A DNA stretch of 23,006 nt, from the IMG/VR virus record IMGVR_UViG_2617270967_000008; one strand, given 5' to 3'. Source of the stretch: a virus (Duplodnaviria; Heunggongvirae; Uroviricota; Caudoviricetes). Positions 1 through 23,006 of the stretch are shown piece by piece. How positions within the stretch are numbered: the first letter of the stretch is position 1; the number at the start of each line of letters is the position of its first letter. The notes beneath the pieces are model-generated. The model ran no database searches and was not told the origin of the DNA. It saw only the letters and a program-made list of their open reading frames with translations. The position numbers and the translations under genes were made by a program.

Positions 1-63
1 CCCGCCATATTCGTTGCTGGCTGCATTTCGTACTGCAAGAATCTCTTTTCCCTTATCCACCAT
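1..63 (-). CDS. Partial ORF (N-terminal 21 codons, MVDKGKEILAVRNAASNEYGG, runs off window); position suggests a tail fibre assembly/chaperone gene
   Basis: ATG at 63..61 preceded by AGGAGG (64-71), which overlaps the stf stop at 72-74; own translation of 1-63. No sequence recognition; the call rests on position only. Confidence 0.3.
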   Translation of the reverse strand, partial: MVDKGKEILAVRNAASNEYGG

Positions 64-71
64 GACCTCCT

Positions 72-1376
72 CTATGATATGCGCTGAAATAATCCTGCCT
101 GTCTGATACCCGGAGATGATGTCCATAGCATCGGACCACATGCACGCCACGTGCCCGGTAAACGGGTCTCCCCCACATTACCGGAAGCAACCAGGGGAGT
201 ACCATTCGAAAGGCAACATGCAGACAGTGATGAGCCGGCAATGGCTGAGCCCGGTGCCATATCCCCCGAATAACTCGTCGCATAATATGCCGCAAGGACA
301 AAAGAACCGACACCAAACAGTCCGCTGTCAGGACTTCCTGACGGTCCCTGAGGTCCTGCCGGACCTGTGTCTCCCGTATCTCCCTTCGGTCCCTGTGGTC
401 CTGCCGGGCCTGTGTCTCCCGTATCTCCCTTCGGTCCCTGTGGCCCTGCCGGGCCTGCAGCTCCCGCATCCCCTTTAGGTCCCTGTGGTCCTGCCGGGCC
501 TGTGTCTCCCGTATCTCCCTTCGGTCCCTGCGGACCTGCCGGGCCTGTGTCTCCCGTATCTCCTTTTGGCCCCTGAGGCCCTGCCTGACCTGCGGCTCCC
601 GTATCCCCTTTTGGCCCCTGTGGTCCTGCCGGGCCTGTGTCTCCCGTATCTCCCTTCGGCCCCTGTGGTCCTGCCGGGCCTGTGTCTCCCGTATCTCCCT
701 TCGGCCCCTGTGGTCCTGCCGGGCCTGTGTCTCCCGTATCTCCCTTCGGCCCCTGTGGTCCTGCCGGGCCTGTGTCTCCCGTATCCCCTTTCGGCCCCGG
801 CGGTCCGCCCGGGTCACCTTTATCGCCCTTCGGTCCCTGTGGACCTGTTTCTCCCCGTTCTCCCTTTGGCCCCGGCTCACCTTTTGGTCCGACCGCCCCC
901 GTTGCCCCGGCTGGTCCCTGTGCCCCTGTGGCACCCTGTGGACCTGTGTCCCCCTTCTCGCCCGCCGGTCCCCGGGCATTCTCTGCCCGTTCCTTCGCTT
1001 CCTCTGCACTCGCCGCCGACGCTTCAGCACGCTTCAGGATTTCCGCTGCCACCGCTTCCAGCTCTGCAAGCGCTTTCGGGTAATACTGCACCTCATCCTG
1101 TTCCATCAGAAATTTATTCAGCGTTCCCGGCTCAGAATCCGCCTTCACCAGAATGTCACCCACATACGACGGGGCGTACCCTTCCGTGTTCAGCGTCACC
1201 CGGTACCACCCCGGCTCCACATCAAAACTGTAACTGCCGGTTTCCCCCGGCTGCCCCTGCGCCACCGTGGTGACTATCACCGTCTCACTCGTTCGCGTGG
1301 CTTTCAGCTCTATGGTGCAGTCCGGTACCGGTTTTCCTGTACCATCCTTCAGCACACCTGAAATCTTTACTGCCAT
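72..1376 (-). CDS. stf: Side tail fibre protein with lambda Stf-like N-terminus and a long collagen-like Gly-X-Y domain
   Basis: N-terminus [17 protein letters not shown]...PGTLNKFL resembles the lambda Stf N-terminus as I recall it; about 200 residues of [20 protein letters not shown] repeats; start taken at the ATG 1376..1374 (MAVKIS), the track start is an upstream GTG. Confidence 0.8.
365..790. repeat. About nine near-identical 45-bp tandem repeats (unit tgtgtctcccgtatctcccttcggtccctgtggtcctgccgggcc on +) encoding the 15-aa collagen-like unit
   Basis: Direct reading of lines 361-840: the unit recurs head-to-tail with a few point variants. Confidence 0.9.
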
Positions 1377-1385
1377 ATTCACCCC

Positions 1386-1414
1386 ACAAAAAAGCCCGCC
1401 TGAACCGGCGGGCT
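1386..1414 (-). terminator. Rho-independent terminator between the lom-derived ORF and stf
   Basis: Minus-strand hairpin AGCCCGCC-ggttca-GGCGGGCT followed by TTTTTTG. Confidence 0.7.
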
Positions 1415-1440: not shown

Positions 1441-2076
1441 TCAGAATTTATAACCGATACCCACGATGAAACCGTCAGTGCGCCAGTCACCACTGCCGGA
1501 GCCTTCATAAGCAATATCAATGGCCACGGATTCGGTCGGGTTAAACTGCACGCCAGCCCCCCACGCCAGAGACGTGTTGCTGTGGCAACCGTCATCACTT
1601 CCGGTCAGCACGTCGTGCGTTTTCCCCTTGTTGTCAGTTACGCGGAGATAATCCCCGGAGAAAGTCGACACACGGCTGTAAGCCACACCCGCCATCGCAT
1701 ACGCGCTGAACCATTCATTCACGCGTACAGACGGCCCCGCCATCACGCTGAACCAGCGGTTACGCACGGAATCTTCATGCCAGCGGGTATCTCTGTAGCG
1801 CGTTTTTTGCTCATCCTCAGCATTGGCATAACTGAAGGACGTAAGACGGGCATACACCGCCTCCGGTGCCGTGTCATCACCGGCAATACGTATCTGGTAC
1901 CAGCCTTCGTTCATCTGACGGCGAAAGCCCGGCATCTGCATCGACAGGGCGCGAATGGCTTCCGCTGCCGTGTTCACATACAGGCTGAGGCGGCGGCCAA
2001 ATCGTTGTAAATCCCCGTGAAGGCAGATGCGTGCCAGTGGCGGTGACGCCAGACAGAATGCGTTCGTCGTTGCCAT
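1441..2076 (-). CDS. lom: In-frame chimera: N-terminal ~70 aa of tail assembly protein I fused to C-terminal ~135 aa of outer-membrane protein Lom; likely deletion remnant
   Basis: Residues 1-66 (MATTNAFCLASPPLARICLHGDLQRFGRR...WYQIRIAG) resemble the lambda gpI N-terminus; from TSFSYANAEDEQKT to GYKF it matches the lambda Lom C-terminal two thirds as I recall it. No signal peptide is present. Confidence 0.75.
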   Translation of the reverse strand: MATTNAFCLASPPLARICLHGDLQRFGRRLSLYVNTAAEAIRALSMQMPGFRRQMNEGWYQIRIAGDDTAPEAVYARLTSFSYANAEDEQKTRYRDTRWHEDSVRNRWFSVMAGPSVRVNEWFSAYAMAGVAYSRVSTFSGDYLRVTDNKGKTHDVLTGSDDGCHSNTSLAWGAGVQFNPTESVAIDIAYEGSGSGDWRTDGFIVGIGYKF

Positions 2077-3459: not shown

Positions 3460-6581
<3,122 letters not shown>

Positions 6582-6607
<26 letters not shown>

Positions 6608-7127
6608 TCAGCAACCCCGGTATCAGTTCATCCAGCGCGGCTGCTTTGTTCATGGCTTTGATGATATCCCGTTTCAGGAAATCAACATGTCGGTTTTCCA
6701 GTTCCGGAAAACGCCGCTGTACCGAGAGAGGGATCCCGTCAAGAATACTGGCAATTTCACCTGCGATCCGTGACAGCACGAAAGTACAGAATGCGGTTTC
6801 CACCACCTCTGCGGAGTCTCTGGCATTCTTCAGCTCCTGTGCGTCGGCCTGCGCACGCGTAAGTCGATGGCGTTCGTACTCAATAGTCCCAGGCTGGAGA
6901 TCTGCCTCACTGGCAGCCCTGTAATCCTCAACCTCTTTACGGAGTTTTTCATTTTCGATATCAGCTTCCCTCTGCGCATACCACTGAATTGCCATGGCGG
7001 TATCAAATACAGATTCAACGCCCTTACCACCTCCGGAGACGCAAGGGAGTCCCTGAGACTGCCAGCGTTCAATCGTTCGCGGATCCACGTTGAAAATTTC
7101 GGCAAGTTTCTTTTTATTAACCTTCAT
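6582..7127 (-). CDS. nu1: Terminase small subunit Nu1
   Basis: 181 aa with an N-terminal winged-HTH; the C-terminal two thirds are near-identical to lambda Nu1 as recalled. Confidence 0.95.
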
Positions 7128-7129
7128 GA

Positions 7130-7345
7130 AACAGTCTCACAATAAATACAGGGGCCGACATGAAAGTGCCCGAAAATGACTTTTTTAGGCGTTTTCATGT
7201 CGGACCTTTTACGGATTCGATATTAGAAAAAACAAATAGTTATGTTCGAGAAGTACCGACATGATTTTCCCCGGAAAATTTTCATAAATAGCGAAAACCC
7301 GCGAGGTCGCCGCCCCGTAACGGCCCGGATCGCCGGAAAGGACCC
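7130..7345. other. cos site (cosB between Nu1 and cosN; cosN 12-nt cohesive end at 7304-7315; cosQ side to ~7345)
   Basis: Reverse complement of 7271-7315 reads GGGCGGCGACCTCGCGGGTTTTCGCTATTTATGAAAATTTTCCGG, the lambda left-end sequence beginning with the cohesive end. Confidence 0.85.
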
Positions 7346-7521
7346 ACGAAATGATAATGATTATCATCTATATAAGGTTTATCACAACATGTGTGTACGC
7401 CATCAAACCACGAGAAATAATCAATTATGACGCAGGTATCGTATTGATTGATCTGCATCAAATTAACGTAAAAGCAACTTCAGATAATACAAATCAGCAA
7501 CACTGAATATGGGGAAACATT

Positions 7522-7722
7522 ATGTCATCAAAGAACAGAACCCGCAGAACAACAACCCGCAACATCCGATTTCCAAACCAGATGATTGAACAAATTAACA
7601 TCGCTCTTGATCTGAAAGGTTCAGGAAACTTTTCAGCGTGGGTTATTGAAGCCTGCAGGAGAAGGCTGGCAACAGATGCAACGCATCTGCGCCCGGCCAG
7701 CATGAAAAATAACGAGAAATGA
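7522..7722 (+). CDS. Small ribbon-helix-helix-like protein, homologue of the small ORF at the lambda right end
   Basis: MSSKNRTRRTTTRNIRFPNQMIEQINIALD...SAWVIEACRRRL matches the lambda right-end ORF from memory; strand-helix-helix pattern. A Fur-box-like GATAATGATTATCATC lies upstream near 7350. Confidence 0.65.
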   Translation: MSSKNRTRRTTTRNIRFPNQMIEQINIALDLKGSGNFSAWVIEACRRRLATDATHLRPASMKNNEK

Positions 7723-7853
7723 ACGTTCGGCTACAGGAGCAGGTACCCACTGTCCTCCAACAATATTTCATCTTCATATCCGACGGAACAAGACTTACCC
7801 TGCCGGGATGTACAGAATAACAACAGAGTGATAATTAATTTCTGATGAAATAA

Positions 7854-8180
7854 TCAGGGTGCAGAAGGACTAAAGATAAACGTTTTCTTCACGCCTTTAC
7901 ACGGCCTGTCCTTCTCAAATCGCCATTTTGCCATCGCCTTTACAACCTGCTCATCAAACAAATGGTGCGGCTCTGAACGGATAAACTCAATTCGGGTGAC
8001 AGTACCATCAGCACCAATATCAAACTTCACATCAACCCGTCCCTTTATATAATTTGCCGCTGCATAGGCCGGATATTGTGGTAATGCCTTAACCAACTGT
8101 CGGGGCATATCTGTTTTATGTTGCGTACAGCCCATAACCAGAGAAGACAACAAAATAATTAACGGAAGGTTTCTTTTCAT
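7854..8180 (-). CDS. Lipoprotein with TonB C-terminal-domain-like region (moron at the bor-equivalent position)
   Basis: Signal peptide plus lipobox (LVMGC); YPAYAAANYIKGRVDVKFDIGADGTVTRIEFIRSEPHHLFDEQVVKAMAKWRFE aligns to the TonB C-terminal motif pattern. Start ambiguous (8186 or 8180). Confidence 0.65.
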   Translation of the reverse strand: MKRNLPLIILLSSLVMGCTQHKTDMPRQLVKALPQYPAYAAANYIKGRVDVKFDIGADGTVTRIEFIRSEPHHLFDEQVVKAMAKWRFEKDRPCKGVKKTFIFSPSAP

Positions 8181-8196
8181 TTTCATTCCCGGCACA

Positions 8197-8217
8197 GATA
8201 AGAATAAGTCTTATTCT
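8197..8217. promoter_or_regulatory. Perfect inverted repeat AGAATAAG-T-CTTATTCT (with GATA prefix) at the putative -10/+1 of the lipoprotein gene; operator-like, weakly Fur-box-like
   Basis: Direct reading: 8201-8208 is the reverse complement of 8210-8217; sits 11-30 nt upstream of the lipoprotein start on the minus strand. Confidence 0.5.
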
Positions 8218-8524
8218 AACAATGCCACCCTGTCGGTCATCAATCCTCTGCTTAATGGCAACGACAATTATCCGACTTAAATCACAAATCAGACACATGA
8301 CATAACAGAGCTTGCGAGGTAACACATCGTCCGGTTTCTTCCACCATCGCACCGGACCAGCGACCATGAGGGGACAACGCCGCGCTCCGTTAACACGGTA
8401 AACCCCGGTGTGTATCGTTTTTGATTATCCCCGCACACTCGCGCAGAGGAGTCTCCCGGTCGGGCTGCGGTCTCTGTTAATGCGGGGATACGGCGACAAT
8501 ACCGCGCATGGTTAATAAGGTCGC

Positions 8525-8749
8525 TCAACACACTGGCTGTAATGCAGCGGATACCATGCGGCATTTAGCGGCATTCATCGTACACTCAACGGTTAGCTCT
8601 TCATTCGTGGCATTCACCTGAAAGGTCCGGGAGTGTAATTGCGTACATTTACCACTGAACGAACCTTCAACAAGAACACGACCACGCTGCAAAATACGGA
8701 ACGGAATTGTTCCCTGAAAAGGCTTTACGGTTACCAGTAATTTCTTCAT
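8525..8749 (-). CDS. Hypothetical 74-aa protein downstream of Rz
   Basis: ORF with GGAGA 4 nt upstream of ATG 8749; no signal peptide, no recognisable motif. Confidence 0.4.
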   Translation of the reverse strand: MKKLLVTVKPFQGTIPFRILQRGRVLVEGSFSGKCTQLHSRTFQVNATNEELTVECTMNAAKCRMVSAALQPVC

Positions 8750-8772
8750 GCATTCTCCGGATAACAAAAATA

Positions 8773-9240
8773 CTAGTTAATACACTGAGTGCGGATATAG
8801 TCCTGCGCCCCTTCCAGTTGCTTCTGCATTGTCATCAACCGCTCTCTGAGGGTGAAATAATCCCGTTCAGCGGTGTCTGCCAGTCGGGGGCCGGTTGCAT
8901 TATCCACGCGGGCGGTGCCGGTGGCTTCACGCACGGAACCTGGACAGGTGGCGTTGATACGCAGGCTGCGGCGACCAGCGGCAACGTCAGCGCGCAGAGT
9001 TTCATTTTCAGCTCTCGCATCGGCTAACTCCTTTGTGTATTTTTCATCCAGCGCAGCAACATCACGCTGACGCTGCTGCATGTCAGTAATGGTTGTGTTT
9101 GCCAGCTCCAGCTCTCTGGCTTTTTTATCGCGCTGCGCTTTGTAGGTGATGGCGTTATCGCGGTAATGATTCAGCCCCAGACTAAGCACACCACAGGCTA
9201 CCAGCAGGACAATAATCACCACACACAGAACACGGTTCAT
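8773..9240 (-). CDS. Rz: Rz i-spanin
   Basis: [16 protein letters not shown]...[15 protein letters not shown]...QKQLEG matches lambda Rz; N-terminal TM; start at ATG 9240 (MNRVLCVV) with a GGTGGTGA RBS. Confidence 0.9.
8835..9020 (-). CDS. Rz1: Rz1 o-spanin lipoprotein, embedded in +1 frame within Rz
   Basis: [25 protein letters not shown]...[30 protein letters not shown] matches lambda Rz1 including lipobox and proline-rich region. Confidence 0.85.
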
Positions 9241-9339
9241 ATCACCACCAACGGATTGCCCAGACCAGAACAGCAATGGCCACAATACGAATGGCAAATG
9301 CCATTGCCCGAATAAGTTCAGCACTCATCTTTTTAAAGT

Positions 9340-9522
9340 TCACGATTTCAGCGCAATGACCAGTTTTGCCAGCCCATACAGTATCGGAGACACAGCGATA
9401 CCAACCGCCACCCACTTAATAGCAAAAGCCAGCGCTCTGCTGATGTCATCAGTTACTGGCGCTTTCAGTTCAAGGCCGTTTTTCATAGTCAACCTCAACA
9501 GAATTCGTTTATACTTTTCCAT
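9340..9522 (-). CDS. Small single-TM membrane protein between endolysin and Rz (function unknown)
   Basis: ATG at 9522 (MEKYKRIL...) preceded by AGGGAGA; hydrophobic FAIKWVAVGIAVSPILYGLAKLVIAL segment. Confidence 0.45.
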   Translation of the reverse strand: MEKYKRILLRLTMKNGLELKAPVTDDISRALAFAIKWVAVGIAVSPILYGLAKLVIALKS

Positions 9523-9550
9523 GTTCTCCCTTGCCTTATCCAAGGTCAGA

Positions 9551-9590
9551 AACACAAAACCCCGCTTGCAGCCAACAAACGGGGTTTTTA
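9551..9590. terminator. Hairpin with flanking T/A runs (weak, bidirectional-looking) between endolysin and the small membrane gene
   Basis: CCCCG...CGGGG stem with a 15-nt loop, TTTTT on + and UUUUGUGUU on minus. Confidence 0.35.
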
Positions 9591-9678
9591 CTTTTATTCA
9601 CTTAGTTTTTGTTAGTTCGCAGGATTTCGTGTTATCCGTCCGTGTGAGCAAACCGCATTTTTCAGCAAAATATTCTGC

Positions 9679-10212: not shown

Positions 10213-10337
10213 GGATATTTATCAGGATTTATCGGTTCCGAATCCCTGGATATGTTAAGTCTTCAGCCCGCCAGTGGTGGGCACTGGCGTAAACTCAACA
10301 ATGCGAGATGGCTGCCTCGCAAAGATAAGGAACAGAT

Positions 10338-10613
10338 ATGAGTGAAGAAAATAGCAAAGAGAATACAGCACTTTTTGACAGAATTTTTACTCTTGAGTTA
10401 CAGGTCGGTTTTCTTCTCCCAAAGATAATCAAAGCAATGGATGCACTAAGTAAAAATAACGCTGTGTCAGATTACCTGATCGCCGAAATGGAACATCTAA
10501 TTAAAGAAATACCAAAGACAGTTGCTCGTGATGATAAAAGATTCCTCAAGGCTGCTGAAGATGCTCTTTCAACAGTGAAGCGCAGCTTAGATGCGCCGCG
10601 CGATCAAGAATAG
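10338..10613 (+). CDS. Hypothetical 91-aa helical protein, AT-rich, convergent with and overlapping the 3' end of the 176-aa gene
   Basis: ATG 10338 with AAGGAA 7 nt upstream; about 38% GC; overlaps 10546-10613 with the minus-strand gene. Confidence 0.5.
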   Translation: MSEENSKENTALFDRIFTLELQVGFLLPKIIKAMDALSKNNAVSDYLIAEMEHLIKEIPKTVARDDKRFLKAAEDALSTVKRSLDAPRDQE

Positions 10614-11076
10614 TTTCTTTCATTTCATCTGCTGCAAGCACCTCATTTTTTGTTGGGGTGCTTTTTTTCAATTCAGCGATATAGCACTCCAGTTTTTCAA
10701 TGCGTGATTCAATATCATCGTTTTCTGACCGCAATGCCGTCGGTGGCGTCTTCAGAGAACCAGTAATTATTCCCGGTAGTTTTCCTCTGTAGGTTATCAA
10801 CACATCCTGCGCCTCTAAAATTATGGGGCGCTTTTCCGGCAACGGACCATCCCCTTCACATAACCCGGCAGCAACATCCATGAAAAACTGCTTCGCCTGC
10901 TTTTTCGCCTCAGCTTCGTAAAACTCCAGCGTGGCATCTTCAGTACGGTCAAGACTAATCGCCACATCTGGCAACAACAGTGACGGATACCCACCAATTT
11001 CCAGTGCCACAGTAACAGTAATCTTATTCGGGTAATTATTTATCCCTTTAACAACCAGTTCGTATTTTTTCTTCAT
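10546..11076 (-). CDS. Hypothetical 176-aa soluble protein inserted between holin and endolysin
   Basis: ATG 11076 lies 4 nt after the holin stop with GGGGAGAG upstream (translational coupling); no TM or signal peptide; predicted coiled-coil C-terminus; no family recognised. Confidence 0.6.
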   Translation of the reverse strand: MKKKYELVVKGINNYPNKITVTVALEIGGYPSLLLPDVAISLDRTEDATLEFYEAEAKKQAKQFFMDVAAGLCEGDGPLPEKRPIILEAQDVLITYRGKLPGIITGSLKTPPTALRSENDDIESRIEKLECYIAELKKSTPTKNEVLAADEMKETILDRAAHLSCASLLKEHLQQP

Positions 11077-15211: not shown

Positions 15212-15288
15212 TGGCGCGTTGTACTGGATTCGAACCAGTGACCGATTGCTTAGAAGGCAATTGCTCTGTCCGGCTGAGCTAACAACGC
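15212..15288 (-). tRNA. tRNA-Arg (anticodon UCU)
   Basis: Hand-folded cloverleaf: acceptor GCGTTGT/ACAACGC, D-arm GCTC/GAGC, anticodon loop CTTCTAA, T-arm ACTGG-TTCGAAT-CCAGT, discriminator G, encoded CCA. Confidence 0.85.
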
Positions 15289-15304
15289 AGGATACAGATA
15301 ATGA

Positions 15305-15378
15305 ACCGCCTTCGGGGATCCGAACTCCGCGCAACCAGCTTCGAAGGCTGGCGCTCTTTCCTGATGAGCTAATGGCGG
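15305..15378 (-). tRNA. tRNA-Arg-like (anticodon UCG) with non-canonical features; possibly degenerate
   Basis: Hand fold: D-arm GCTC/GAGC, anticodon arm CCAGC-CTTCGAA-GCTGG; T-loop TTCGGAT with one A-C mismatch in the T-stem; acceptor 6/7 paired, starts C1-G72, no encoded CCA. Confidence 0.5.
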
Positions 15379-15385
15379 TATGTGA

Positions 15386-15461
15386 TGGTGGCCCTTGCTG
15401 GATTTGAACCAGCGACCTGGCGATTATGAGTCGCTCGCTCTCACCACTGAGCTAAAGGGCC
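15386..15461 (-). tRNA. tRNA with anticodon CAU, resembling E. coli tRNA-Ile2 (ileX-like) rather than tRNA-Met
   Basis: Hand fold: acceptor GGCCCTT/AAGGGCC, anticodon loop CTCATAA, T-arm GCTGG-TTCAAAT-CCAGC, encoded CCA; overall resemblance to ileX as recalled. Confidence 0.8.
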
Positions 15462-19394: not shown

Positions 19395-19462
19395 ACGTGC
19401 GGGTGCGTTGAGGATGCCTGACACATCAGAGGTGGCGAGGGGTTTCTCCCTCGCCGGGTCTC

Positions 19463-19618
19463 TTACTCCTCAGGTTCGTAAACTGTGAAGACAGCGACCT
19501 CCGTCTGGCCGGTTCGGATTCGTACCTCGCAGAGGTCTTTCCTCGTTACCAGTGCCGTCACTATGACGGTTAAACAGATGACGATCAGGGCGATTAACAT
19601 CGCCTTTTGCTGCTTCAT
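19463..19618 (-). CDS. hokD: Hok/Gef-family type I toxin (HokD-like, 51 aa)
   Basis: MKQQKAMLIALIVICLTVIVTALVTRKDLCEVRIRTGQTEVAVFTVYEPEE is near-identical to HokD as I recall; AAGGAG RBS; an upstream in-frame ATG gives a mok-like extension. Confidence 0.85.
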   Translation of the reverse strand: MKQQKAMLIALIVICLTVIVTALVTRKDLCEVRIRTGQTEVAVFTVYEPEE

Positions 19619-19909
19619 AGCCTGCTTCTCCTTGCCTTTCGGCACGTAAGAGGCTAACCTAGATTTGCCGTTCATAGATTGAGCCTCAGATTAATGTTAA
19701 GCGTCTTGCAGGACGCGTAATGTTAACTGGGGCTTTTCTCTATCTGCCTTTTGGTATTCATGCCTGAGACAGATAGCCTCAAGCACCCGCAGCAATTCTA
19801 CTTAACTATCCTTTCCCCGCAAATCGTTTTTATCCCCAGCGACAAATCGAATACACCACCAGCGCCACCGCCATTGCGATCCCTACCGTTGTGAATGCCT
19901 CAGGCCAGG

Positions 19910-20254
19910 TCATCGTAAAACATCCTCTGCGCTTATCAGTCCGTTTCGCTTCAGGTAGTCCATCGCCTTACCCGGCAATTTACAGTCCGGCTTCGTTTTC
20001 CTCAGTTGCCAGGTTAACTGCTTTACCAGCATGGTTAACTCGTCGACCAGACGCTGATGTCCCACTGGTTTGTATTCATGCAATTTACCGGCTGGCTCTG
20101 CTGCCAGCGATGCCAGTGCGATTTCCAGAACAGCAATATCCATCTTATATGTGCGGATGATGTCATGGTCGATTGTGCCCGGTATGCACAGTCTCTGTGC
20201 TTCAATAGTCTCCTCTGCGTGAGCTATTAACTGCTCTCTGGTAAAAGTGGTCAT
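19910..20254 (-). CDS. Hypothetical 114-aa protein
   Basis: ORF whose start overlaps the stop of the upstream 130-aa gene (ATGA); no recognised motif. Confidence 0.4.
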
Positions 20255-20643
20255 GCCGCGCTTCCTTCTTGCTTATTAACGATTACACCGTCATATATTT
20301 CATTAAGGTGTCCCCTCAACTCCATGCGCCTTAATGCAGACAACATGTAATCGCATTCAACCTGCTTATTTCCAGTAAATGGCTTATCGTCAGGATCACC
20401 CCAACAGCAATTACCCTTGGGCCACCCATGTACTTTCCGTACTCTTCCGTTAACAACGTGAAGTAATCCCCAGCCAGGTGGTAAATCCTCAATTGAAATA
20501 ATTCCCGGCTCACTAATAAAGAATCTCCAGTCGCCCATGCCAAGAGAGGGATTTTTACGGAAACGCTTTTTTCTATCTGCCAACAAGTCAGCACGAGAAC
20601 ACTTCGCCTCTATCAGGCATGATGCTGAATTTCTGAATCCCAT
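20251..20643 (-). CDS. Hypothetical 130-aa protein (Cys/Trp-rich [14 protein letters not shown] segment)
   Basis: ORF coupled to the 114-aa gene; no recognised family. Confidence 0.4.
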
Positions 20644-20669
20644 AGCATCTGGTTGTTCTCCAGTACTGG

Positions 20670-21608
20670 TTACAGCAACAAAGCGGTCATGAAAGCAAAC
20701 CTTGAACCCGTTGCGCTTAAGGAACCTGTAACCAGTTCATCCCATTTTTCGCGAAGCTTTGACGGACTCATGATATTTTTTACCCAGAATGGATCCCGCT
20801 GCGCCCGACCAAACATTTCACAAATTTGTCTGTGAGTTCTGCCATCCAGCATCCGCATTGTGCGCACGTCGTTGGCCCATGCGGTCCAGTTGGGTTCTTT
20901 CGGTCGCGAAATCTCGCCATCATCGCTGGCGGCCTGCTCGTAAAGACTCACGATTCGTCCCCAGATCCACTGCGCACACGCCAAATCTTCCTGGTTGCCC
21001 CACTGGCGTTTTTTTGCACTGAACACAACCGCGTCAGGGTGTCGGGTTAAAAAATCCTGTTCAACCGTCTGCGGGTCCGGTTGCGAAGCTTCCGGACGAG
21101 AAGTGTTTTTATTCTCTGTAGTAATCTCTGTTGTATTCTCTGTAAGATCATCAGGCCATTTTGACCCGATGACATTGAGTCGTTTTGAACCAATGGAACG
21201 TGCCATTTTGGCCCCTTCCATCGTGTCATTCTGACCTGATGGAGCAGCGCATTTTGACCTGATGGATTCGCTCACTTTGCCACCATTTAAAAGCTCGCTC
21301 TCGTAATTAATCGTGTAAAAATTAGTCATATCACGCTTTGATTTATTGAGCTTTTCGCAACGCAAAAGCCCCAGCGTTTTCAGACTTGCAAATGCGCGTT
21401 TTAACGTTGACTCTGACCAGAACGGGAACTGCTCCAGCCATTGTTCTGTTGTGTTATAAATCCAGCGAACACCATCACATTCCATGCCGGAACCGGTATC
21501 TCTCAACCAGTAATGCAACTGCTGCAACACGATGGCTTCGTTCAGACCAATTTTCATCGCCAGCTGCGTGTTTATAACCAGCGGACGTTCAGCAAAAAGG
21601 AGCTTCAT
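20670..21608 (-). CDS. Putative phage replication-initiation / replisome-organizer protein
   Basis: N-terminal HTH-like region (LNEAIVLQQLHYWLRD...STLKRAFASLKTLGLL) and position upstream of the nin-like genes; start at ATG 21608 directly after a G9 tract. Family assignment is tentative. Confidence 0.5.
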   Translation of the reverse strand: MKLLFAERPLVINTQLAMKIGLNEAIVLQQLHYWLRDTGSGMECDGVRWIYNTTEQWLEQFPFWSESTLKRAFASLKTLGLLRCEKLNKSKRDMTNFYTINYESELLNGGKVSESIRSKCAAPSGQNDTMEGAKMARSIGSKRLNVIGSKWPDDLTENTTEITTENKNTSRPEASQPDPQTVEQDFLTRHPDAVVFSAKKRQWGNQEDLACAQWIWGRIVSLYEQAASDDGEISRPKEPNWTAWANDVRTMRMLDGRTHRQICEMFGRAQRDPFWVKNIMSPSKLREKWDELVTGSLSATGSRFAFMTALLL

Positions 21609-21617
21609 CCCCCCCCC
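21609..21617. repeat. Homopolymeric C9 (G9 on coding strand) tract abutting the replication-gene start codon
   Basis: Direct reading: nine consecutive C at 21609-21617; ATG at 21608..21606. Confidence 0.9.
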
Positions 21618-21628
21618 AGAACACGTTA

Positions 21629-21888
21629 TCAATGCGCCACCACGGCATTTCCCGCCGGACCACCACGATTCATCTGATCGAACAACACGATCGCTGCCGC
21701 AACAAACTCATCGATATCTTTCACCAGGCGCTCCCGTCGCTCGACAAGCTCCCGGTGATATTCCGAACTGTGGCTGCGCATTCGGGCCACCAGTGGAGGC
21801 GGCATTGCTTTTTCGATCGCCGGTAACAACGCCTGAATTTTTTTAACCGCATCAGGGGTGTCTTTTTCTACCCAGCGGAAAATTTTCG
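21629..21888 (-). pseudogene. 5'-truncated prophage gene (C-terminal ~66-86 codons) interrupted by the IS66-family insertion
   Basis: Open frame continues upstream of the track start with no stop until it enters the IS end near 21889; the stop overlaps the replication-gene region. Confidence 0.4.
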
Positions 21889-21972
21889 TAAGCGTAAAGC
21901 CAATGCCGTCTGTAACACCTGCTCCTTGCAGACTAAATTAGAGCTCCTTCTAAATTAGACGGAGTTCTATTG

Positions 21973-22407
21973 ATGGATAAACCTACAGACTGGCGCTCCG
22001 GAACCCGCCGGATATTTTCTAATGAATTTAAACTTCATATGGTTGAACTGGCTTCGAAACCAAATGCCAATGTTGCACAACTGGCCCGGGAACATGGCGT
22101 TGATAACAACCTGATTTTTAAATGGCTACGCCTCTGGCAAAGAGAAGGACGTATTTCTCGTAGAATGCCTCCAACTATTGTAGGCCCTACAGTATCACAA
22201 TCTTTTCCGGCCTCTCCGACTCTGGTTCCAGTGGAACTTATCGACACCCCGCGCTGTGCTACAGATGCTCCTGCTCCGGGGGCATTATCAGTTGCTTGTG
22301 CAGCTTCCTGCCATGTGGAATTCCATTACGGTAAAATGATGCTGGAAAATCCTTCACCAGAGCTGCTCACGGTGTTGATCCGTGAGCTGACCGGGAGGGG
22401 ACGATGA
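21973..22407 (+). CDS. tnpA: IS66-family accessory protein TnpA
   Basis: N-terminal ...RRIFSNEFKLHMVELASKPNANVAQLAREHGVDNNLIFKWLRLWQ HTH typical of IS66 orfA; ATG 21973 with GGAG upstream. Confidence 0.85.
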   Translation: MDKPTDWRSGTRRIFSNEFKLHMVELASKPNANVAQLAREHGVDNNLIFKWLRLWQREGRISRRMPPTIVGPTVSQSFPASPTLVPVELIDTPRCATDAPAPGALSVACAASCHVEFHYGKMMLENPSPELLTVLIRELTGRGR

Positions 22408-22754
22408 TTTCACTCCCATCAGGTACCCGTATCTGGCTCGTTGCCGGCGTTACTGATATGCGTAAATCCTTCAACGGTCTGGGGGAGCAGATACAGCATG
22501 TGCTGGATGATAACCCCTTCTCCGGTCACCTGTTTATCTTCCGTGGCCGACGGGGAGACACGATTAAAATCCTGTGGGCTGATGCTGATGGTCTGTGCCT
22601 GTTCACCAAACGCCTTGAGGAAGGTCAGTTTATCTGGCCTGCGGTGCGTGACGGTAAGATATCCATTACCCGCTCGCAACTGGCAATGCTCCTCGATAAG
22701 CTGGACTGGCGTCAGCCAAAAACATCCCGCCTTAACGCACTGACAATGTTGTAA
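22404..22754 (+). CDS. tnpB: IS66-family TnpB
   Basis: 116 aa, MISLPSGTRIWLVAGVTDMRKSFNGL...LFIFRGRRGDTIKILWADADGLCLFTKRLEEGQFIWP, characteristic IS66 orfB; overlaps the tnpA stop. Confidence 0.9.
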   Translation: MISLPSGTRIWLVAGVTDMRKSFNGLGEQIQHVLDDNPFSGHLFIFRGRRGDTIKILWADADGLCLFTKRLEEGQFIWPAVRDGKISITRSQLAMLLDKLDWRQPKTSRLNALTML

Positions 22755-22784
22755 AAAACGCCGGGCCGGATTATAAAAACGGCC

Positions 22785-23006
22785 ATGAGTCAGAAATACC
22801 TCATTCGCATCGCTGAGCTGGAAAGGCTGCTCTCTGAGCAGGCTGAAGCCCTCCGTCAGAAAGACCAGCAACTGAGTCTGGTTGAAGAGACGGAGGCCTT
22901 CCTGCGCTCTGCACTGGCACGTGCCGAAGAAAAGATCGAAGAAGATGAGCGAGAAATAGAGCATCTGCGGGCTCAGATAGAAAAACTGCGCCGGATGCTG
23001 TTCGGA
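22785..23006 (+). CDS. tnpC: IS66-family transposase TnpC, N-terminal 74 codons (3' end beyond window)
   Basis: Own translation MSQKYLIRIAELERLLSEQAEALRQKDQQLSLVEETEAFLRSALARAEEKIEEDEREIEHLRAQIEKLRRMLFG: the coiled-coil N-terminus typical of IS66 transposases. Confidence 0.8.
   Translation, partial: MSQKYLIRIAELERLLSEQAEALRQKDQQLSLVEETEAFLRSALARAEEKIEEDEREIEHLRAQIEKLRRMLFG

Follow-up and report, generated by a model that had tools for sequence, protein, structure and literature searches.

A lambdoid side tail fibre gene with a copy-number-variable 45-bp collagen-coding array in a decayed prophage

Results and discussion

The DNA examined here is a 23,006-nt stretch of a tailed virus (IMG/VR record IMGVR_UViG_2617270967_000008, Caudoviricetes), referred to below as the window. 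Its coding sequence at 72–1376, on the minus strand, very probably encodes a trimeric lambdoid side tail fibre of the Escherichia coli prophage collagen-like protein (EPclP) family, the collagen rod of which is built largely from near-identical 45-bp units that change in copy number through misalignment. The gene specifies 434 amino acids (aa) and a stop codon (ATG at 1376–1374, stop at 74–72, from the open reading frame (ORF) list and translation), and its beginning, MAVKISG, is also the annotated start of its relatives. The array supplies 150 of the 214 collagen residues (70% of the rod), and otherwise near-identical fibre genes carry between six and ten units.

A tandem 45-bp array in the collagen-coding region

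The Gly-X-Y region comprises 214 residues and 71 triplets (aa 136–349, window 330–971), in good agreement with an earlier note on this DNA, made from the letters alone, which had placed about 200 Gly-X-Y residues at 340–965 without naming a strand. Tandem Repeats Finder returned a single array at 342–813 (period 45, 10.5 copies, 89% matches, no indels, score 706), and a second repeat search gave 11 copies at a spacing of exactly 45 nt. Read in the coding register, the variable part of the shaft consists of ten 15-codon units (342–791, minus strand), eight of which encode the same 15-aa peptide and two of which encode variant peptides. The tandem array and the unit peptide described earlier are retained, and the earlier count of about nine near-perfect repeats is corrected to ten. 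Individual units deviate from the consensus by 0–9 nt, units 2 and 3 are identical, and the longest run identical at lag 45 is a perfectly periodic tract of 173 bp across units 1–4 (613–785, strand-neutral). On its N-terminal side the array is preceded by Col1, a non-repetitive Gly-X-Y run of 18 triplets (aa 136–189, 810–971, minus strand) in which identity at lag 45 is only 0.48, and by the one break in the Gly-X-Y pattern, G-D-P-G-G-P-P-G (aa 187–194, 795–818, minus strand).

At lag 45, identity within the array was 0.90, compared with 0.56 and 0.41 at lags of 9 and 18. In 2000 shuffles of the 9-nt triplet blocks, the lag-45 identity was 0.56 ± 0.03, with a maximum of 0.67. Units encoding the same peptide differ on average at 2.7 of 15 codons, against 9.1 expected for independent encodings, computed with the codon usage of the fibre gene outside the array and of five other genes in the window. 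Chance, or the plain periodicity of collagen, is rejected as the cause of the repeat by the lag profile, the block shuffle and the likeness at synonymous sites. Because the units are alike at synonymous sites, they are either young duplicates or have been kept alike by exchange, and selection on the peptide motif would not explain the pattern. Coding collagen-like variable-number tandem repeats (VNTRs) have a period that is a multiple of 9 nt, and the array shows this form, with head-to-tail units, a period of 45 nt (five triplets) and no indels. Since one unit is exactly five Gly-X-Y triplets, gain or loss of a unit preserves both the reading frame and the register of a triple helix.

Copy number and unit order among near-identical alleles

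Over positions 1–1844 the window is identical to E. coli S1-CAM-01-A (NZ_CP145714.1) apart from one substitution at 1587 and one 90-bp indel, that is, one indel against one single-nucleotide difference in 1.75 kb. Deletion of any 90-bp block starting at 613–696 of the window yields the S1-CAM-01-A sequence, which places the difference in the 173-bp perfect tract. Numbered as in the window (ten units, in the order 1,2,3,4,5,6,7,8,9,10), the units of S1-CAM-01-A are eight (1,4,5,6,7,8,9,10), those of JNEC-KY204 ten (1,4,5,6,2/3,4,5,h,9,10), those of 2017.17.03CC six (1,4,5,h,9,10) and those of PS2Canimalfeces12 seven (1,2/3,4,5,h,9,10), where h denotes a variant unit lying 2 nt from unit 6 and 2 nt from unit 9. 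These four strains represent all four complete genomes with a distal domain at least 99% identical to that of the window. A sixth allele, on a contig of the draft genome GCA_012348535.1, was found through the exact fusion protein encoded upstream of the fibre gene in the window (I::Lom, described below); it has nine units (1,2/3,4,5,6,7,8,9,10) and is without one of the identical units 2 and 3, a 45-bp difference that also falls in the perfect tract. Relative to the window, the flanks of these alleles show no more than 4 differences in 585 nt on one side and no more than 1 in 270 nt on the other.

Near-identical alleles thus carry 8, 9, 10, 10 in a different order, 6 and 7 units, the polymorphism between near-identical strains that characterizes a coding collagen-like VNTR. 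More distant fibres with the same distal domain have 5, 7 and 11 units in complete genomes, and the protein collection holds relatives with 1–10 units; among these, variant units appear in shuffled order, and full-length proteins come in sizes 15 aa apart (367/382/397, 373/388 and 339/354). Expansion and contraction in in-frame 45-bp steps had been anticipated in the earlier note, and the 90-bp indel in S1-CAM-01-A together with the range of 6–10 units among near-identical alleles bears this out. The opposite outcome, a repeat number identical in all related genomes, was checked on assemblies and is contradicted by counts that vary from 1 to 11.

The exact 434-aa protein is absent from a collection of 15 billion proteins, no complete E. 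coli genome covers at least 80% of the whole window, and a long-read study of O157 outbreaks contains no report of variation in this fibre gene. A search with the C-terminal part for the distribution of unit numbers retrieved mainly partial proteins cut at contig ends, a result that bears on assembly and not on that distribution.

Domain architecture and family assignment

The N-terminal part of the protein is that of a prophage tail fibre. PF08400 (Prophage tail fibre N-terminal, the PfN domain of EPclPs) covers aa 1–134 (E 4.1e-42, 143.8 bits against a cut-off of 26.6), and the PDB chain 9e7m_Ta, ‘Tail fiber protein’, which is the collar domain of the Ur-lambda Stf, matches aa 1–91 (E 9.4e-30), delimiting an N-terminal collar domain encoded at 1104–1376 on the minus strand. 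The Pfam Collagen family matches with an E-value of 2.5e-33, and the top-ranking PHROG is phrog_366, ‘tail fiber protein’ (E 1e-107). The gene lies directly after lom, here fused to I, in the lambdoid late operon; intact relatives have the order J-lom-fibre-DUF4376 at the prophage end adjoining potB, and the downstream gene belongs to DUF4376 and phrog_1141 (‘tail fiber protein’), not to Tfa. The PF08400 match, the 9e7m collar match and the position after lom uphold the earlier reading of the gene as a side tail fibre.

Composition places the shaft close to the EPclPs. At the X position Pro accounts for 53.5% of residues, Asp/Glu for 35.2% and Ala for 8.5%, against published EPclP preferences of 48, 36 and 10; at the Y position Thr accounts for 29.6%, Ala for 21.1%, Lys/Arg for 22.5% and Gln for 18.3%, against 20, 21, 31 and 14.5 (PMC3368898 Table 4). 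As in EPclA–D (Ghosh et al. 2012, PMC3368898), which are encoded in lambdoid prophage tail modules, a PfN domain is followed by a collagen domain (Col) and a non-collagenous C-terminal domain, so that the collagen domain is flanked by phage-fibre domains. The GP(Q/P)-GPK-G(D/E) motif and the G-x-P-G-G-P-x-G interruption, present here as GDPGGPPG, are likewise shared (PMC3368898).

The architecture nevertheless departs from the published ones. PCoil, the segment of ~88–116 aa between PfN and Col in EPclA, B and D, is absent, with Col starting at aa 136 and the PF08400 match ending at 134. Only the ~44-aa, presumably helical tail of PfN, a short Ala/Glu-rich linker lying inside the PF08400 model (aa 92–135, 972–1103, minus strand), stands between collar and Col, in the place taken by the long PCoil in EPclA/B; PCoil is often missing in EPclC (PMC3368898). 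Pfam detected no Pf2 repeat in the fibre, and the last 85 aa gave no Pfam match at E ≤ 10, hence no PfC (PF06820), the presence of PF06820 in the Pfam copy used being unconfirmed. Without a long PCoil, Pf2 or PfC, the fibre fits none of the four drawn EPclP architectures exactly and comes nearest to EPclC/C*. Taken together, domain matches and composition support its assignment as a lambda Stf-type side tail fibre of the EPclP family, and by analogy of composition with EPclA, the one member for which this is established, the protein would form a trimer with a collagen triple helix.

The distal domain

The C-terminal domain of 85 aa (75–329, minus strand) ends in GLFQRIS and carries a conserved PGTW motif. 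It matched nothing in Pfam at E ≤ 10 and nothing in PHROGs, but is found at 87–100% identity in fibres of 286–397 aa and at 28–45% identity in other E. coli fibre types, and it also terminates the fibre of O104:H4, which has a long PCoil. The domain is rare, occurring at 43 places in 33 of 5,426 complete E. coli genomes and at 99% identity or more in four of these genomes; tblastn at E ≤ 1e-3 found it in none of 50,697 phage records.

An AlphaFold2 monomer model depicts a small beta domain (mean predicted local distance difference test score (pLDDT) 72, predicted template-modelling score (pTM) 0.67). Foldseek comparison of this model with predicted viral structures (BFVD) retrieved many phage tail fibre C-termini (template-modelling (TM) scores 0.6–0.7, E down to 3e-5), including fibres of phages of Pseudomonas, Aeromonas and Roseobacter; no solved structure resembling it was found by Foldseek in the PDB. 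The C-terminus of gp47 of Pseudomonas phage Pa193 gave a weak match only (E 0.97 in the PDB sequence search, E 0.075 in the profile search), to a region that is not built in the Pa193 structure; this match agrees with the predicted-fold matches to tail fibre C-termini. By analogy with PfC of EPclA, which trimerizes and nucleates refolding of the helix (PMC3368898), the distal domain probably nucleates trimerization, and it probably also makes contact either with the receptor or with what the DUF4376 gene downstream encodes.

Proposed assembly and repeat dynamics

In the proposed mechanism, the collar domains formed by the 91 N-terminal residues would dock the trimer on the tail, followed by the short helical linker, and the C-terminal domain would bring the three chains into register, after which they would zip into a triple helix. 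With a collagen rise of 0.286–0.288 nm per residue (PMC3368898), the rod would measure ~61 nm over its 214 residues and the array ~43 nm, each unit contributing ~4.3 nm. Misalignment of units, by replication slippage or by unequal homologous exchange, would add or remove whole units, and the partner in such exchange could be the array itself or a paralogous fibre gene in another prophage. Copy-number change would then be about as frequent as point mutation in the flanks. The same homology would allow different proximal and distal modules to be joined inside the collagen region.

EPclA is an experimentally studied member of the family. It is a stalked, dumbbell-shaped trimer with a true collagen triple helix melting at 42 °C, as established by circular dichroism, size-exclusion chromatography with multi-angle laser light scattering and electron microscopy, and its stalk is formed by the collagen domain together with the PCoil coiled coil (PMC3368898). 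Col lengths differ between EPclP copies in multiples of three residues, but the Col of EPclA spans 63–144 aa, compared with 214 aa in the window, and the Col of the window is mostly a young 45-bp tandem array, of which no counterpart is described in PMC3368898. A further length difference may belong here, if the two fibres share a locus: the O104:H4 fibre has 512 aa and seven units, and the EPclC* protein EC55989_1078 of EAEC 55989 has 467 aa, a gap of 45 aa equal to three units.

For attachment the reference is lambda. By cryo-EM, residues 1–91 of the Ur-lambda Stf form collar domains, the beta4-beta5 loops of which touch gpV and gpM, and a flexible linker leads to the shaft; the four trimeric side fibres are non-essential and speed adsorption (PMC12617516). 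The window fibre shares the homologous collar (aa 1–91) and the position after lom with lambda Stf. The parts beyond differ: lambda Stf continues into a coiled-coil shaft and a T4 gp37-like OmpC-binding tip and is followed by tfa, whereas the window fibre continues into a collagen shaft and an unrelated tip and is followed by DUF4376.

Length-variable collagen repeats are known outside this family as well. The polymorphic collagen region of BclA of Bacillus anthracis changes filament length (Sylvestre et al. 2003, PMC148075, as reported in PMC10470788), although BclA is a glycosylated spore-surface protein with other repeat units and no phage context, and the link between length and phenotype is that of BclA. 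Lcl of Legionella pneumophila has tandem collagenous repeats that vary from 11 to 18 units between isolates, a polymorphism like that of the window array; its repeat domain is required for the triple helix and its binding scales with repeat number (PMC6460258). Lcl is, however, a secreted bacterial adhesin with a different C-domain, and its repeat number serves as a VNTR typing marker, whereas the window fibre is a phage protein. Collagen-like repeats also lie between the domains of proteins for host recognition in Streptococcus thermophilus phage antireceptors and in virophage ORF8, and in the Guarani virophage a spontaneous in-frame loss of repeats, 81 nt in all, was associated with a changed host range (PMC5601072; PMC7242381); the proteins and hosts are unrelated, and their repeat sets are shorter than the window array (Guarani has five repeats of 27 nt).

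The window fibre is accordingly a new allele and a new architecture variant within a described family, and it behaves as specialists would expect. Nothing in it is new in principle, since length-variable collagen domains of E. coli prophage fibres were described in 2012 and functional collagen VNTRs are known from BclA and Lcl. It does show cleanly, in a natural setting, a collagen-coding repeat whose length changes at about the rate at which its flanks gain point mutations, and a collagen array that serves to join fibre modules. Unit number could also serve as a fast-evolving marker for closely related prophages.

A fibre gene in a decayed prophage

Three deletions, mapped against the prophage of S1-CAM-01-A (NZ_CP145714.1), have removed J, most of the tail genes (M to Z) and the head genes (FI to part of the portal). 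The reference prophage is itself nearly intact, although its S49 protease gene is annotated as frameshifted. The first deletion, with its junction near 1840–1844, removes the tail tip gene J and parts of lom (5′) and I (3′) and leaves the in-frame I::Lom ORF at 1441–2076. The second begins within M, takes out H, T, G, V, U and Z and ends in FII, with its junction near 3586–3587. The third begins in FII, takes out FI, E, D and the protease gene and ends in the portal gene, with its junction near 3851–3856, leaving a portal-FII fusion ORF at 3460–4482. Among the losses are V and most of M, which in Ur-lambda provide the mounting site of the fibre (gpV/gpM). The draft genome GCA_012348535.1 has the first two deletions but not the third, and so represents an intermediate stage of the same decay. 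It follows that the fibre gene of the window does not belong to a working virion; it is a relic that has stayed intact, or else serves other phages as a reservoir. Both this defective state and the module-swapping role of the array discussed below had escaped the earlier note.

Several observations weigh against the interpretation of the gene as a length-variable EPclP side fibre. With tail and head genes lost, the prophage can build neither tail nor head and cannot use its own fibre, and because 45-bp steps never break the frame, the intact ORF is no evidence of selection. As tblastn found the distal domain in none of the 50,697 phage records, no isolated phage is known to use exactly this fibre. 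PCoil and PfC of the experimentally studied EPclA are absent, so that its biochemistry is carried over by analogy; confidence in the monomer model of the distal domain is moderate (pLDDT 72), and the link to gp47 is weak (E 0.075) and lies in an unresolved part of that structure. Finally, the differences between 8, 9 and 10 units (S1-CAM-01-A, the draft contig and the window) all fall within the perfect tract, where true slippage is likeliest but so is mis-assembly; collapse does not account for the alleles of JNEC-KY204, 2017.17.03CC and PS2Canimalfeces12, which show differences beyond that tract and in the order of their units.

In the strongest rival explanation, the decaying prophage of this genome has left the gene without function, a relic in which unit changes are neutral drift with no phenotype, a proposal to which we would give slightly less than an even chance. 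Three deletions have cost the prophage J, the tape measure and the tail tube, together with the major capsid protein and part of the portal; a draft relative has gone part of the way through the same decay; no selection is needed to keep the ORF open when every step is in frame; and side fibres of lambda are in any case dispensable for plaque formation (PMC12617516). Yet the 434-codon ORF and the start of the DUF4376 gene are intact, and a prophage whose late region is nearly complete carries identical ones; defective prophages can donate tail fibre modules by recombination, as stated in PMC3368898. The relic proposal, moreover, concerns present use only and does not contradict a variable EPclP side fibre.

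The array as a joint between fibre modules

In NMBU-W12E19 the fibre gene equals that of S1-CAM-01-A over its first 752 nt, reaching into the fourth unit, and continues with other collagen units and then a distal module carrying a Peptidase_S74 intramolecular chaperone domain. Because the distal module is switched inside the array, the array is also a recombination joint. A 483-aa protein (P0014) was considered as the source of the NMBU-W12E19 distal half and rejected, the equal length being coincidental. Among the ranked matches to phage records and to E. coli genomes, many are partial and begin at window positions 760–787, within ~30 nt of the proximal array edge at 791, and others end inside or just past the array, at 674–854. 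The distal domain itself stands behind at least three proximal architectures, namely one without PCoil (the window), one with diverged PfN and Col1 (L006 and L007) and one with a long PCoil (O104:H4).

These mosaics are consistent with a second rival, in which the array is mainly a homologous adaptor for swapping distal receptor-binding modules and not a means of tuning rod length. For S. thermophilus phages, it has been suggested that collagen-like repeats are hot spots of recombination (cited in PMC7242381; PMC5601072). We consider this possible but not likely, given that exchange could be a by-product of any repeated sequence and that the closest alleles mostly vary in unit count and order between the same modules on both sides.

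More doubtful still is the bolder proposal that the array is a selected dial of reach, in which frequent in-frame changes of 4.3 nm per unit would match the length of the side fibre to the thickness of O-antigen or capsule, and which would at the same time act as a module adaptor fed by a reservoir of defective prophages. If this were true, distal receptor-binding modules would swap between co-resident prophages, and defective prophages would form a reservoir of fibre variants.

Assembly and annotation artefacts

Collapse of the repeat during assembly had been suspected in the earlier note. It is plausible here, though unproven: the one-unit alleles all come from short-read contigs of 1.1–2.2 kb, one of them at coverage 3.5, and there are clusters, dozens of members strong, of ‘partial’ collagen-like proteins that break off within the repeat where the contig ends. 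That all copy-number differences are artefacts of collapse or mis-resolution is, in our assessment, improbable. The 173-bp perfect tract does exceed many short reads, and the window, the draft contig and S1-CAM-01-A differ only inside it. Four independent complete RefSeq assemblies, however, also differ in unit order and in carrying units 6–8 or the variant unit, outside the perfect tract; the differences are exact multiples of 45 bp with zero other mismatches, which is atypical of long-read error; and collagen-domain lengths of 81 and 111 aa occur among prophage copies of Sakai in finished genomes of the Sanger era (PMC3368898).

A bacterial surface collagen-like adhesin of the Scl, Lcl or BclA type, for which copy-number-polymorphic collagen repeats are typical and to which the PDB sequence match with BclA through the Gly-X-Y part (1wck, E 9e-10) might point, was rejected as scarcely credible on its N-terminal domain, which is the lambda Stf collar and no adhesin-type targeting region, and on the position of the gene in a tail module, after lom and before a tail-fibre-associated gene.

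The repeat also misleads gene prediction. In each of the six frames across 300–1000, the longest run without a stop is 112–233 codons. Besides the coding frame, another minus-strand frame is open throughout (ORF 53–1030, 325 aa), and the plus strand has ORFs of 262, 148 and 120 aa; the spurious ORFs expected on the opposite strand are thus present, the 262-aa one foremost. In practice, short-read assemblies break or collapse at this site, gene callers produce spurious ORFs and pipelines mislabel the gene. PGAP names the JNEC-KY204 fibre (NZ_AP045180.1, L002 3072–4376) ‘M14 carboxypeptidase N/E family protein’, and treats the fibre of O104:H4 2011C-3493 (NC_018658.1, L014 2052–3110) as a pseudogene ‘missing C-terminus’ even though its 512-aa ORF is intact. 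The 90%-identity cluster of the fibre protein (P0001) also lists DUF4376 proteins of 177–201 aa. A relationship of these proteins to the fibre was rejected, as BLASTP found no similarity between P0121 and P0001, and they probably entered the cluster as an artefact of the clustering, perhaps by way of a fused or read-through entry.

Neighbouring genes and other features of the window

Downstream of the fibre gene, the DUF4376 gene is represented by its start only (1–63, minus strand, from translation) and runs off the left end of the window; in relatives PGAP picks an alternative start, at 126, and their protein matches PF14301 and phrog_1141. Upstream, the I::Lom ORF (1441–2076, minus strand) joins the N-terminus of tail assembly protein I in frame to the C-terminal part of Lom, with Pfam Lambda_tail_I at aa 15–69 and Ail_Lom at aa 77–211. 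A scan located a strong intrinsic terminator-like hairpin in the interval between lom and the fibre start codon (1393–1414, minus strand), with a stem of eight pairs, seven of them G-C, followed by TTTTT. Given this position, fibre expression would need read-through of the terminator. The T-run of the hairpin stands directly upstream of the likely ribosome-binding site.

Three parts of the window are without counterpart in the closest prophage, that of S1-CAM-01-A, namely 6983–9674, 10228–10825 and 19395–23006. The ORF at 7854–8195 carries a TonB C-terminal domain, and five ORFs between 19017 and 22964 gave no Pfam match. Downstream of the Q antiterminator region lie three tRNA genes on the minus strand (15212–15461), namely Arg-tct, Arg-tcg and a tRNA with a CAT anticodon, the last assigned to Met by ARAGORN and to Ile in the annotation of a relative. 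A tRNA cluster downstream of the Q region is the arrangement seen in Stx-type lambdoid phages.

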